Source of the DNA: Candidatus Sulfomarinibacteraceae bacterium
GTDB lineage: Bacteria; Acidobacteriota; Thermoanaerobaculia; Thermoanaerobaculales; Sulfomarinibacteraceae
NCBI GenBank assembly: GCA_963796455.1
Contig: CAWCLO010000004.1
Location: 1,024,001-1,088,000 of the forward strand
Reading direction: 5' to 3'
Length of the DNA: 64,000 bases
Both the position numbers and the translations under genes were made by a program. How positions within the stretch are numbered: position 1 is the stretch's first letter; each line of letters opens with the position of its first letter. The notes beneath the pieces are model-generated. The model was not told the origin of the DNA. It saw nothing but the letters and a program-made list of their open reading frames with translations, and did no database searches. This document shows positions 22,999 through 33,413 of this stretch, piece after piece.

Positions 22999-23876
22999 TC
23001 GTCACAAACACGAAGACACAAAGGCACGAAGACATCGCGAAGCAGCGCAGTTTGCCCACAGAACACACAAAAGCCATCGCAGCGCAGCGCGAATAGCCCG
23101 CAGATCACGCAGATAGACGCAGATGGCAGCCTGATTGCGGAGACATCAGCCACCGCTGCAAACAAACCACGTCCGCCTCCCGAGTCCTTAACGCAGAGGC
23201 GCAAAGGCGCAGAGGATTTCCCGGCAACATCCCCAGTCCGGCGAGATCCTGGCCGCCCAGGGCGGCCAGAAACCGCTGTGCCCAAAAACCGCCTCGAAAA
23301 CAAGCTTTCATTGCGGTTTTTGAGCACAGCGACCTGCGCGACCGCGCAGGTCTCGCCTACTTCCTCCCCTTTCCTTCAATCAGAGTTGTGTGTCTCCGAT
23401 GCAAGGCAGATTCGGCATGCCGTAGGCGTGCCGGCCGGTGGGAAGCGGGGTGACTCCGAGCGCTGGCGGTCGGAGTCACCCCGCTTTTCACCGGCGACGG
23501 GCGATCGGAGATCGTCTGGCGATCTGCCGACACTGATGGCAACACCGCACAAGTTCCCCAACCAGGCCTTTGCGTCTTTGCGACTTTGCGTTCTTTGCGG
23601 TTCAATCATGTGCACGCGAGACGCGTACACCACCATGGTGGTGCAGCCGTTCCGGCTGCACCCCGGTCGTGCCTTCGCGATGGCTTCTGTTTTTTCTGTG
23701 TGCTCTGTGGGCCATCGTGGTTGCGACGAGACCGTTTGCGATGGATCTGCGTTCATCTGCGTGATCTGCGGGCGTTCTCTCTCTCTCTCTCTCTCTCTCT
23801 CTCTCTGTGTCTCCGTGCCTCTGTGGTTTTCTTGGTGTGACTCCTTCGTGCCTTTGTGTCTTCGTGTTTGCGACGA
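22999..23876 (+). mobile_element. Family A structured non-coding element, copy 1 (MITE-like or ncRNA-like)
   Basis: 33-bp terminal inverted repeat (22999-23031 vs 23844-23876, 1 mismatch); ~590 bp core shared with copies 2 and 3; many internal hairpins. Confidence 0.8.
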
Positions 23877-23967
23877 GGGCGAGCTCAATCGATCGGCGCT
23901 GCCCGAGATGGTCTGCGGCCGAAATAGGGCCGATCCGGCGAAGGTGGCTCACTCCGGTTAAGATGAG

Positions 23968-24252
23968 GTGGTGAAAGTCACTCGCTTCCTCCTGATCGTC
24001 GTCTACATCGGCTACCTGGTCAACGTCGGTCTCTTCCTGATGATGGTGCCGTGGTCTCGTGCCTGGGGGGCCTTGGTGACCCAGTTGCCGGCCTCCGCTT
24101 CAGTTCTCTTCGATCTTCCCTGGTTCCGGGGCCTGTTGTCGGCTTTTGGCGTCCTCCACCTGCTCCTCGTCGTCTGGGAACTGATGCACCCGACCCTCCT
24201 GACACCGCCCGAGCCATCACAGCTCGAATCTCAGAACCTGCATCAATCTTGA
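23968..24252 (+). CDS. Small hypothetical membrane protein
   Basis: 94 aa, two hydrophobic segments, GAGG RBS. Confidence 0.65.
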   Translation: MVKVTRFLLIVVYIGYLVNVGLFLMMVPWSRAWGALVTQLPASASVLFDLPWFRGLLSAFGVLHLLLVVWELMHPTLLTPPEPSQLESQNLHQS

Positions 24253-24283
24253 TTTGTGGCATTTAGGGTCGTACACTGCGCAA

Positions 24284-24652
24284 GTGGGGCGCCGGGTTCT
24301 TATCGTTGACGATGAGCCGTACATACGGCGAATCTTGTCATTCAAACTTCGTCGGGAAGGTTTTGCGACGCTCGAAGCCGCCTCGGCTGAAGCCGCCGAA
24401 GAAATCCTCGGTGAGCACGATATCGATCTCGTTCTGCTCGACGTCGGTCTTGCGACCCCGACCAACGGCTTCGATCTCGCGGCCGGCCTCCGCCGAAATG
24501 CGAAGACTCAACACCTGCCCGTGATCATGCTGACGGCCCGCGGGTTTGCTTCGGACGTGCTTCGTGGAAGAGAGGTCGGAGCCGCCGGTTACATCACCAA
24601 ACCCTTCACGGCGGAAGAGGTCATTCGGCGCGTACGGGCTCTTCTCGGTTGA
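24284..24652 (+). CDS. Single-domain response regulator (CheY-like receiver)
   Basis: VLIVDDE, LVLLDV, IMLTA, YITKPF. Start uncertain (24254 or 24284). Confidence 0.9.
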   Translation: MGRRVLIVDDEPYIRRILSFKLRREGFATLEAASAEAAEEILGEHDIDLVLLDVGLATPTNGFDLAAGLRRNAKTQHLPVIMLTARGFASDVLRGREVGAAGYITKPFTAEEVIRRVRALLG

Positions 24653-24677
24653 CGTCGTAGACCTCGCCGCGTAGGCT
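24649..24677 (+). promoter_or_regulatory. Putative sigma70 promoter of the ileS-lspA-lgt-rluD operon
   Basis: TTGACG-17 nt-TAGGCT upstream of the GGAGG RBS of ileS. Confidence 0.4.
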
Positions 24678-24700
24678 CACATCCCGGAGGCCGCGACCAG

Positions 24701-30706: not shown

Positions 30707-30709
30707 CCG

Positions 30710-31348
30710 CTAGGATCGCACTGCGAGGAGTTTGTCTCGCAGGTCTGTTGGGGTGCGGGGATCGGTCAGGACACGATCGAGGTCGGCGATGGTATCGATA
30801 TCGGTGAGCTCTTCGAGTTCGATCCACGTAACTCCGAGTTGCTCGAGCCGTTGCCGCGTCTGAGAGAGGGTTTCGGGACAGGACCATGGGATATCCGTGA
30901 AGAGTTCAACACCGGGCGGGCGCTGGGCCACAAGCCAGTAGCCCCCGTCGTCCGCCGGACCGAGCACCACCTCTCCCCTCTCCAGCTCGTCGATCGCCTG
31001 ATGAAGATGTGGGGCGCCGAGCCACGGGCAGTCGGAGCCGATGACCACCACACGATCCTCCCCTTCATCAAAGCGCCGGGAGAATGCATCACCCATTCGT
31101 GCGCCGAGGTCAGAGCCGGATTGAAGCTCGGTCGACACCGGCAGGGAATCGATCCAATCTGAAGCCGAGTCATCCGCGAGGGACAGTATGACCCGCAGCC
31201 CGCTGGTCGTTGCGGCCGCCAGGGTGTGATCGAGCGTTGCCGCATAGACGGCCGCCGCCTGCCTGGCTCCGACTCCTTTCGCAAGTCTGGTTTTGACCCG
31301 GCCCGGGACCGGTTCGCGACCGAAAACCACGATGCACCCGGTGCTCAT
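30710..31348 (-). CDS. TIGR04282/DUF2064-family nucleotidyl/glycosyltransferase-like protein
   Basis: PGRVKTRL, QSGSDLGARM, IGSDCP, LGPADDGGYWL, DIDT. Confidence 0.88.
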   Translation of the reverse strand: MSTGCIVVFGREPVPGRVKTRLAKGVGARQAAAVYAATLDHTLAAATTSGLRVILSLADDSASDWIDSLPVSTELQSGSDLGARMGDAFSRRFDEGEDRVVVIGSDCPWLGAPHLHQAIDELERGEVVLGPADDGGYWLVAQRPPGVELFTDIPWSCPETLSQTRQRLEQLGVTWIELEELTDIDTIADLDRVLTDPRTPTDLRDKLLAVRS

Positions 31349-32034
31349 CTGACCTCCCGATACCATCGAGCGAGTTGGTGCGGCGATACACCACAACGAA
31401 AAAGAACCGGAAAAACGAGATTCATCACCCTTGTTCTGATTGGAAAACGCCGGTAGCGCCGGGCCGTCGTCCGCATCAACAAAGGGATCCGTCGAATGGC
31501 TCCTTGGCGGCGGCATCTTCCGGCAAAAACGAGGTCTTCCATCAACGGGATGTCGGGGAATCCGCCAACCGCGTCAAAGATCTCGCGCCGGACAGCAAAT
31601 CCCTGATCTCCATAAGGGAGCCGCCAGCCCCTCGAACGGAGATCGAGGGTCCACAGCCACATCCTCGTGAGCACCGTACCTTCGGTGGCGTCCCCCGTTT
31701 CCGTTCGGAGCCGAAAACACGCGAGACTGGTGCGGCGATCCTGAAGGGCTCTCTCGAGTACCGGTCGCCACCCGGGTGGCAGCCTGCAATCAGAATGAAC
31801 AAAAAGCAAATCCGGTGCAGATGTGGACGCCGCTCCGAGATTGAGCTGGGACCCTCGACCCGGTTTTCCTTCGACCACCCTCGCGCCTGCTTCGGCGGCG
31901 CGCTGACATGTGGCGTCGGTGCTACCCCCATCCACCACCACGACGTCCAAATCGGAGTGCGCGCCCACCGCCTCGAGGCACGATCCGATCGTGCGCTCCT
32001 CGTTGAGAGTCGGGATGATGACGGCGAGCTTCAA
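31345..32034 (-). CDS. TIGR04283-family GT2 glycosyltransferase
   Basis: IIPTLNEE, VDGGSTD, GRGSQLNLGA, PYGDQG, PLMED. Confidence 0.9.
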   Translation of the reverse strand: MKLAVIIPTLNEERTIGSCLEAVGAHSDLDVVVVDGGSTDATCQRAAEAGARVVEGKPGRGSQLNLGAASTSAPDLLFVHSDCRLPPGWRPVLERALQDRRTSLACFRLRTETGDATEGTVLTRMWLWTLDLRSRGWRLPYGDQGFAVRREIFDAVGGFPDIPLMEDLVFAGRCRRQGAIRRIPLLMRTTARRYRRFPIRTRVMNLVFPVLFRCGVSPHQLARWYREVR

Positions 32035-32123
32035 GGTGGGGTGCCTCCTCGGTGGGTTGATTCTAGACGAGACGAGTTGAGACCTTCGAACCCGGGGACC
32101 GGATACGCTATTATTCCCCGGCT

Positions 32124-32483
32124 ATGGAGAAGATCACTACCGTTGACGAGATTCCCGGCAAGGGCCTGCGATTCACTTACAAGGAGGGCCCTTTCGACGA
32201 GGAGGGAATCCTCCTGAAGATGGCTGACGGGTCGGTGCGAGCATTCAAAAACGAGTGCCGACACCTGCCGATGCGTCTCGACGACCGCGAACCACGCGAA
32301 CTCTGGGACCCAACCGGTCGCTATCTTGTTTGTTCATCACACGGCGCCCGTTACCAGCCTCACGACGGCCTTTGCGTCGGCGGACCGTGCGAGGGATCAC
32401 ACCTGAGAACCCTCCCGATCGAAGTCCAGGATGGTGTTGTATACCTCGACACATCCAAGGTCGGTGGCTTTTTCAACGTCTGA
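32124..32483 (+). CDS. Rieske 2Fe-2S ferredoxin-like protein
   Basis: NECRH...CSSHGA Rieske motif, CVGGPC. Confidence 0.88.
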   Translation: MEKITTVDEIPGKGLRFTYKEGPFDEEGILLKMADGSVRAFKNECRHLPMRLDDREPRELWDPTGRYLVCSSHGARYQPHDGLCVGGPCEGSHLRTLPIEVQDGVVYLDTSKVGGFFNV

Positions 32484-32520
32484 CGCATTCGGACAAAACG
32501 CAGCGGCCCGGAGCCGGCCA

Positions 32521-33413
32521 TCTCGTCGCAACCACCACGTCACCAAGGACGGACACCAGGAAAACCACAGGGGCACAGAGACACAGAGAGAGAACGCCCG
32601 CAGATCACGCAGATAGACGCAGATGACAGCCTGATTGCGGAGACATCAGCCACCGCTGCAAACAAACCACCTCCGCCTCCCGAGTTCTTAACGCAGAGAC
32701 GCAAAGGCGCTAAGGCGCAGAGGACTTCCCGGCGCCATCCCCGGTCCGGCGAGATCCTGGCCGCCCAGGGCGGCCAGAAACCGCTGGGTCAGGAAACCGC
32801 TCCGAAAACCAGCTCTCGTCTCGGTTTCCTGACCCAGCGGCCTGCGCAGTCGCGCAGGTCTCGCCTTCTTCCTCTCCCTTTCTTCAATTGAGGATGGGTG
32901 CCCCCCGAAGCAAGGCAGAACCGGCATGCCGTAGGCGTGCCGGACGGTGGGAAGCGGGGTGACTCCGAGCGCTGGCGATTGGAGTCTCCCCTCTTCTCAC
33001 CGGCGACGGGCGATCGGAGATCGTCTGGCGATCTGCCGACACTGATGGCGCCCTCGCACAAGTTCGCCAACCAGGCCTTGGCGTCTCTGCGACTTTGCGT
33101 TCTTTGCGTTCTTTGCGGTTCAACCATGTGCACGCGAGACGCGTGCACCACCATGGTGGTGCAGCCGTCCCGGCTGCACTTCGGTCGTGCCTTTGCGATG
33201 GCTTCTGTGTTTTTCTGTGTGCTCTGTGGTCCTTTACGCCAGCCCTCTTCGTTCCCTCTCTGTGTCTCCGTGCCTCCGTGGTTTTCCTGGTGTGACCCCT
33301 TAGTGCCTTTGTGTCTTCGTGTTTGCGGCGAGTTCGTGTGCGATGGATCTGCGTCCATCTGCGTGATCTGCGGGCGTTCTCTCTCTCTGTGTCTCTGTGC
33401 CTCCGTGGTTTTC
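32521..33413 (+). mobile_element. Family A structured non-coding element, copy 3
   Basis: ~65-bp inverted repeat (32560-32624 vs 33347-33413); same core; lies between the convergent Rieske and phhA genes. Confidence 0.8.

Follow-up and report, generated by a model that had tools for sequence, protein, structure and literature searches.

Three copies of a gene-less repeat

We analysed a 64,000-nt stretch of a Candidatus Sulfomarinibacteraceae genome (hereafter the window; positions 1,024,001 to 1,088,000 of the forward strand of contig CAWCLO010000004.1, assembly GCA_963796455.1), which contains three copies of a repeat that we call family A. Copy A1 (22999-23876) lies between divergent genes for a glycosyltransferase and a 94-aa open reading frame (ORF), A2 (29755-30706) between the convergent rluD and DUF2064 genes, and A3 (32521-33413) between convergent Rieske and aromatic amino acid hydroxylase genes. 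All three are on the plus strand, at the positions and in the shared orientation given by a preliminary description of the window, and they are 83% (A1-A2, 877 alignment columns), 87% (A1-A3, 638 columns) and 89% (A2-A3, 629 columns) identical.

Each copy consists of two arms of short words around two structured units. The left arm of A1 (22999-23206, plus strand) is made of A-rich words of the type that flanks GxxExxY genes (see below), namely X (23000-23019), V (23055-23072), Z (23098-23124) and W (23188-23206), V being assigned to this type by assumption since V arms were seen around no gene. Two predicted four-way junctions follow, unit 1 (23240-23357), favoured on the minus strand, and unit 2 (23405-23528), favoured on the plus strand, with a 47-nt spacer between them (23358-23404; mostly 43-68 nt genus-wide). 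The right arm (23567-23876, plus strand) carries T-rich reverse complements of W, W0, V, Z, Y and X and a genome-specific insert (23610-23661), composed of a 21-nt palindromic block and a repetitive extragenic palindrome (REP, 23634-23661). In A2 the left arm (29756-30063, plus strand) reads Y, Z, X, V-like, partial Z and W, and is followed by unit 1 (30105-30222, minus), unit 2 (30270-30393, plus) and a right arm (30432-30706, plus) with block and REP at 30475-30526. In A3 the left arm (32524-32706, plus strand) reads X, Y, Z and W, and is followed by unit 1 (32748-32865, minus), unit 2 (32914-33037, plus) and a right arm (33076-33413, plus) with block and REP at 33128-33179.

Word order differs from copy to copy and the outer modules vary, so that fixed terminal inverted repeats are absent, while internal inverted repeats of 33, 29 and 27 bp (A1), 55, 36 and 36 bp (A2) and 67 and 83 bp (A3) are present; both features had been described before. 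DNA folding z-scores are -13.9 for A1 and -17.9 for A3, and none of 20 shuffles was equally stable. Seven ORFs overlapping A1-A3 have no Pfam match, which leaves the core non-coding. Rfam, including group II intron ends and known ribozymes, gave no match at gathering score in the window; A1 had sub-threshold hairpin matches only, and an E-value search likewise returned nothing meaningful. Membership of a known Rfam family can therefore be set aside. Two findings speak against an assembly artefact: the element occurs at 33-34 distinct loci with different flanks, and a public short-read contig, its source sample perhaps the same, crosses the left edge of A3 (32388-32586) with 0 differences. The ~590-bp core first described is present in the copies, but what is conserved within it is two units of ~120 nt, and the family is genome-wide.

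The core is a back-to-back pair of predicted four-way-junction units

Between the W words lie two units of ~120 nt, and unit 1, when reversed, aligns with unit 2; the two are thus homologous and inversely oriented, and at 51% identity they keep the same four-arm geometry. In the consensus, a stem closes the unit and encloses two short hairpins and a long one, the apex of which is conserved. In a plain unfitted alignment of 19 sequences 37 of the 52 pairs covary. With 141 model-fitted sequences the figure rises to 49 of 52, which is inflated by related sequences; none of 500 shuffles scored as high, and slid controls were far lower. The three-hairpin fold was recovered in 192 of 197 non-redundant units, 53 of them without an unpaired junction base. 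The unit is a new, strongly covarying structure motif for which a covariance model is ready. Comparison by eye with bridge RNA, tRNA, attC sites and domain V of group II introns gave no likeness that we retained.

Among 109 filtered units, G·T outnumbered A·C on the plus strand of unit 2 (154:39; 37 versus 6 columns) and on the minus strand of unit 1 (122:44; 33 versus 7 columns), counts to which some bias is added because the fold that supplied the pairing allows G·U on the strand in question. These statistics indicate that selection acts on the minus strand of the left unit and on the plus strand of the right one. The back-to-back arrangement was seen with all 60 distinct spacers and in all 50 metagenome pairs, and together with the opposite strand preference it makes the core a symmetric dyad with one favoured unit per strand. 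Single units without a partner also occur, and only the ~290-nt dyad is conserved genus-wide. Side loops measure at most 3 nt in 268 of 384 cases (GNRA 10, UNCG 3), and the unit apex is C-TC-G or C-TT-G in 149 of 192. With loops this short and so few RNA tetraloops, the core leans towards acting as DNA, RNA being possible. What is new here is this structured core of two covarying four-way-junction units, paired back to back.

The arms are those of GxxExxY nuclease genes

Three GxxExxY cassettes (TIGR04256) are found in this genome, one of them frameshifted and two with intact genes (G000:C1:453.9k and 750.1k), and each lies inside its own inverted pair of words: Y (CACAGAGA-type), Z (CGCAGAT-type) and W0 (CGCAAAGAA-type). 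GxxExxY arms of relatives add X (CACGAAGA-type) and W (CGCAGAGG-type). These five words are the flank modules of family A and also stand around 20 further GxxExxY genes in the genus, which bears out a link to GxxExxY that the preliminary description had raised. Polarity is shared as well, left arms always having the A-rich form and right arms the T-rich form around core and gene alike. Inward-facing arm words were present on both sides of all 82 non-redundant dyads from relatives and metagenomes (21 further dyads were excluded because their flanks were too short), against a background rate of 1.3% per 250 nt. The genome holds 40 more inward arm pairs that lack a core, some nested in each other. 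No GxxExxY gene was found inside the arms of a core, and the GxxExxY genes of this genome lie elsewhere. The arms of this unexplained gene family can thus hold non-coding cargo instead of a gene.

Arm type follows protein clade: on a tree built from 21 intact GxxExxY domains, from which fragments and genes with stops were excluded, the six arm labels (set by eye) require five changes, which is the minimum. The predicted structure (predicted local distance difference test score 94.8) has a generic PD-(D/E)xK fold. In contrast to the proposal that the two arms are kept complementary within each copy, left-right pairing within a copy was not better than between copies by any of four measures across 34 copies (p 0.069, 0.056, 0.30 and 0.60). 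Our literature search, which covered mostly open papers, found no description of the junction unit or of the GxxExxY arms.

At one gene junction (G000:C1:453900; regions L227, L228, L229, L230, L232, L235, L237 and L238) some genomes carry a Y-arm GxxExxY cassette and others an X-arm cassette of another protein clade. Because the same junction holds cassettes that differ in arm and clade, this suggests replacement of one GxxExxY cassette by another in place. In many relatives (L209, L218, L006, L012) a linker parts the modules; it carries CCACCCACCC in left arms and GGGTGGGTGG in right ones.

Copy number and taxonomic range

The core matched over at least 200 bp at 33 loci in the genome and a unit-2 profile located 34, while the covariance model counted 55 units. 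The core unit is also present in all 24 other genomes of the genus. Outside it, the model matched 7 of 36 genomes from other genera of the family, strongly in one genus only, where the dyad again lies within X and Y arms. It matched none of 40 genomes of the class (86 candidates scored per genome) and none of 150 of the phylum (23 scored per genome), a weak test. A pattern scan of GTDB representatives gave 65 matches in 15 assemblies, 13 titled Ca. Sulfomarinibacteraceae, Thermoanaerobaculia or Acidobacteriota and 2 with other depositor titles; a pattern scan of viral contigs gave none. Copies cluster locally, 16 of the 34 lying within 12 kb of one another versus 4.8 expected (p 0.0006). Tandem-word arm repeats of the 7-8-mer kind occupy ~215 kb of the genome in 769 regions.

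Sites are lineage-specific and copies are homogenised in place

A comparison of orthologous loci, which the preliminary description had proposed as a check, showed that the unit is absent at the window sites in 19 of 19 regions (each covering one to three sites), the gaps being empty or occupied by other hairpin repeats. Other sites are shared. Among 146 loci of relatives and metagenomes that have a neighbour homologous to a gene here (loci that are not independent), 68 adjoin a gene that flanks family A here too, and 12 of the 34 sites are covered. Of 22 genomes, 16 have units at junctions of the imuA-imuB-dnaE2 operon, four of them at all four junctions, and truncated contigs account for three of the six negatives; the ImuA-like and ImuB-like assignments are below curated cut-offs, and the third gene is the error-prone polymerase. 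A unit lies near dinB in 8 of 24 genomes and at none of 24 lexA loci. Judged from these comparisons, the cassette has persisted in an error-prone DNA polymerase operon across the genus, and its persistence there and beside dinB raises a possible link to damage-induced mutagenesis.

The sequences at such shared sites do not follow the site. All 22 complete dyads of this genome, three imu copies included, form one clade (Shimodaira-Hasegawa-like approximate likelihood ratio test 100, quick search), and the imu copies share 86-90% identity with the rest of the copies in this genome versus 57-68% with same-site copies in relatives. In addition, the 21-nt block beside the REP is present in 28 of 34 copies here versus 0 of 124 loci elsewhere. 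Because dyads group by genome and carry a genome-specific insert, we conclude that old sites were refilled or converted in place with the version of this genome over several hundred bases; among four close relatives, dyads group partly by site and partly by genome. Site occupancy is thus lineage-specific, and copies are homogenised in place. This makes family A a clear example of long repeats being overwritten where they stand at ancestral sites. For REP doublets forming hairpins (REPINs) this is so far a suggestion, in that those at conserved spaces may be overwritten (REPORTH, 10.1101/2024.10.14.618302).

Target duplication was not above chance across the 34 loci, whose ends are approximate (shared 5-mers 18/34 with 15.7 expected, shared 7-mers 0/34), in line with the earlier statement that none is obvious. 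Copy ends are ragged, and arm blocks are shuffled and duplicated. Several candidates for an autonomous copy were rejected: recurrent ORFs near units proved to be host genes, an IS91-like insertion sequence fragment between two units in one genome looked incidental, and in another genus a radical SAM-like host gene flanked by two dyads accounted for two units spaced 1.4 kb apart.

At all 17 imuA regions viewed (L206-L225, L017) a motif TTTAY-N6-TTTAY lies upstream of the gene. With a matrix built from 9 regions, uvrA-like, dinB and lexA-like genes rank 2nd, 3rd and 8th of 4175 (G000:C1:619033, C10:603617 and C10:560972), and a related sequence lies upstream of lexA across the genus; the motif is likely the LexA operator of the lineage. 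A general link between family A and the SOS response was not supported, given the lexA count and the lack of the imuA motif upstream of the SRAP, radA and fpg neighbours. Genomes across the genus share a small conserved ORF (~35 codons) in the gap from imuA to imuB (G000:C4:790.2-790.3k; L211, L218, L219, L223).

Relation to known repeat systems

Family A has the inward tandem-word arms of a GxxExxY cassette but not the GxxExxY gene between them. Miniature inverted-repeat transposable elements (MITEs) and mobile insertion cassettes with insertion sequence ends are non-autonomous, multicopy and may carry cargo. Family A is likewise non-autonomous and multicopy, but it lacks the fixed terminal repeats and target duplication that a four-helix-bundle element of the same genome possesses.

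REPINs (PMC3116915) and bacterial interspersed mosaic elements (BIMEs, PMC3333891), which are tied to the REP-associated tyrosine transposase RAYT/TnpA(REP), resemble family A in being intergenic, non-coding inverted doublets with a short spacer and one functional copy per strand, and in forming mosaics by insertion into or beside other repeats. Two homologous inverted units with a short spacer are indeed found in family A. However, the repeat unit of REPINs and BIMEs is an imperfect palindrome of 20-40 nt that ends in a tetranucleotide tag, whereas that of family A measures ~120 nt, has three hairpins borne by a closing stem and shows no evident GTAG or CGTC tag in its consensus. Moreover, REPIN/BIME repeats flank the RAYT gene, whereas the family A unit was at 0 of 30 Y1-transposase loci, with only the extra REP module linked to RAYT, and family A is always wrapped in GxxExxY arm words.

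The GxxExxY cassettes themselves resemble the Ssn (SsnA)-NTS/SRM system (PMC11893778), in which a small single-domain nuclease gene lies in its own repeats, gene-less repeats occur genome-wide and protein is paired with repeat. Ssn is a GIY-YIG nuclease that cuts a 20-50-nt hairpin in vitro, whereas the present family is PD-(D/E)xK, with tandem 8-9-mer arms and a putative nuclease activity. TIRtrons and long dimers of structured terminal inverted repeats (TIRs, PMC3733652) are likewise long and partly self-complementary, occur in Acidobacteria among others and include REP dimers inside other palindromes; these TIRs flank a tyrosine transposase gene, and no such gene was found beside family A units. 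Finally, the heptamer arrays of Xanthomonas and Nostoc (PMC4692102) share with the arms short-period intergenic words near stop codons and a strand bias, but they are G-quadruplex-type 7-mers without a structured core, whereas family A words are 8-9-mers traceable to GxxExxY cassette ends. As the comparisons with REPs, MITEs and Ssn each failed in some part, we file family A in none of those families; we regard it as a new REP-mosaic variant whose structured core is undescribed and whose nuclease partner is a candidate.

A model for spread and overwriting

The proposal of an undescribed non-autonomous element is supported. The explanation we favour, to which we give about an even chance, is that family A is a gene-less mosaic of GxxExxY arms around a junction dyad and that it spreads and overwrites older copies by recombination initiated by a nuclease acting in trans on folded single strands. 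Arm pairs would insert into the loops of other hairpins, and the nesting of the flanks would follow from this. Cleavage of either the arm words or a folded unit, most plausibly by a GxxExxY PD-(D/E)xK protein, would prime copying from another family A copy without target duplication. The back-to-back pair would give each strand one correctly folded unit, like the inverted doublet of REPINs and BIMEs. GxxExxY is the first candidate for the initiating enzyme because the arms are its own and because Ssn offers a precedent for a small nuclease with cognate repeats. Cognate arm/protein pairs and a defined branched substrate open this large orphan nuclease family to oligonucleotide tests.

A more far-reaching version, which we regard as doubtful, is that family A represents a mobile DNA of a new class. 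Its arm words would be recognised by the GxxExxY nucleases to which they belong, the gene would have been replaced by paired single-strand mimics of Holliday junctions whose resolution drives copying of one whole cassette over another at gene junctions, and the host would have kept dyads in LexA-controlled translesion polymerase operons. If true, this would tie repeat turnover to DNA damage.

Several observations weigh against a GxxExxY-driven DNA element. A unit was found at only 1 of 28 GxxExxY loci, ~1.3 kb away, and 7 of 25 genomes have no GxxExxY match, one of them 95% complete with 41 model matches. No gene-bearing copy of the core was found in a search, suggested earlier, for copies that enclose an ORF, either among the GxxExxY loci or at the 30 Y1-transposase loci, a subset of about 115 matches. 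The arm label on the GxxExxY tree is partly confounded with locus inheritance. A fold search does not point to junction resolvases in particular; it lists Cas4 (Z 7.7), lambda exonuclease and Hjc (Z 6.3) without separating them, and none reaches 8. Public reads, in which coverage is patchy, showed no excised or empty allele of the same strain. The G·T bias is compatible with RNA and DNA alike, and C-UY-G, the loop at the apex, is a known RNA tetraloop. Lastly, the dyads at imu junctions all face the direction of the operon (26/26), which hints at a transcript-level role.

These last points lead to the possibility, tentative and on the whole unlikely, that the dyad is a two-way RNA element kept by selection in imuABC and dinB transcripts. 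A transcript coming from either direction would finish in a four-way junction of the right orientation, which would stabilise, terminate or direct the processing of the mRNA, and the arms would form RNase III-type stems as in rRNA intervening sequences. On either strand the favoured unit lies 3', and the presence of units at imu junctions and beside dinB is in keeping with such a role. By our own gene calls, the 34 copies comprise 16 in convergent, 14 in co-directional and 4 in divergent context, and the convergent share compares with 17% of gaps of at least 100 nt. This enrichment and the imu orientation bias are the best points for an RNA role. However, between co-directional genes the orientation bias is unclear genome-wide (9 versus 5), the imuA-imuB junction in other genomes is occupied by plain heptamer arrays, by a cassette of the four-helix-bundle kind or by a remnant, and units are missing from lexA. 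Loops of mostly 1-3 nt and the rarity of RNA tetraloops likewise argue against this reading.

Rather doubtful is a scheme with no dedicated enzyme, in which the hairpins would be prone to breakage, host recombination would mend them with other copies as template, and template switching would make the stems perfect and so mimic covariation. It would account for the undetected target duplication, the ragged ends and the shuffled and duplicated arm blocks. Consistent with it, copy number does not track GxxExxY presence, and no reverse transcriptase (PF00078) match was found in this genome, which is 90.5% complete. Host recombination does not explain, however, why the four-arm geometry is fixed in unit types that share 51% identity, why the G·T bias is strand-specific, why the back-to-back order is invariant or why new copies are present at sites that are empty in relatives.

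We consider it improbable that the cassette is a BIME mobilised, through its captured REP, by a RAYT-like HUH transposase resident in the genome. The REP of A1 matches repeats that flank an open Y1 (RAYT-like) transposase gene at G000:C4:209.8-210.5k, it has 136 copies in the genome and it is found in the right arm of 28 of 34 family A copies; in E. coli, BIMEs are recombined by TnpA(REP), which cuts at a distance (PMC3333891). Yet a REP lies within 200 nt at just 1 of 124 relatives' loci, although several of those genomes hold tens of units, and the REP therefore explains at most the expansion in this genome. The remaining suggestion, that each copy is one ~0.9-kb structured non-coding RNA, is very improbable despite the very stable folds and the fixed internal module order, since the two units prefer opposite strands, the arms do not co-vary within copies, only the dyad is kept across the genus and single units occur.

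Neighbouring repeats and other observations

Two Y1-transposase genes (G000:C4:209750-210540 and C1:952400-953400) are flanked by palindromes with CGTC; in the account of PMC3733652, CGTC repeats are not linked to transposases. Hairpins beginning GTCATCCTGAGCG (window 53225-53418 and 55203-55394) are very abundant in the genome and resemble Ssn-type repeats. No small GIY-YIG gene was found in this genome, its sole GIY-YIG match being in a 668-aa frame.

The four-helix-bundle (PF05635) element lies at window 34306-35060 and has ~62 similar copies and 70 family matches in the genome. Terminal inverted repeats are present in 56 copies, 19 of which also have a 9-bp target duplication, and most copies lie in heptamer arrays; one, with a 9-bp duplication, sits inside the W-array of a family A copy (G000:C4:224.4-225.2k). 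Other tandem-word arm families of the 7-8-mer kind lie in the window at 47193-47381, 50436-50760, 53000-53580, 55112-55600 and 59660-59980. The ileS gene (window 24701-27527) is split into two frames near 25650, which is probably an assembly indel because a short-read contig over 25361-25679 shows one gap.

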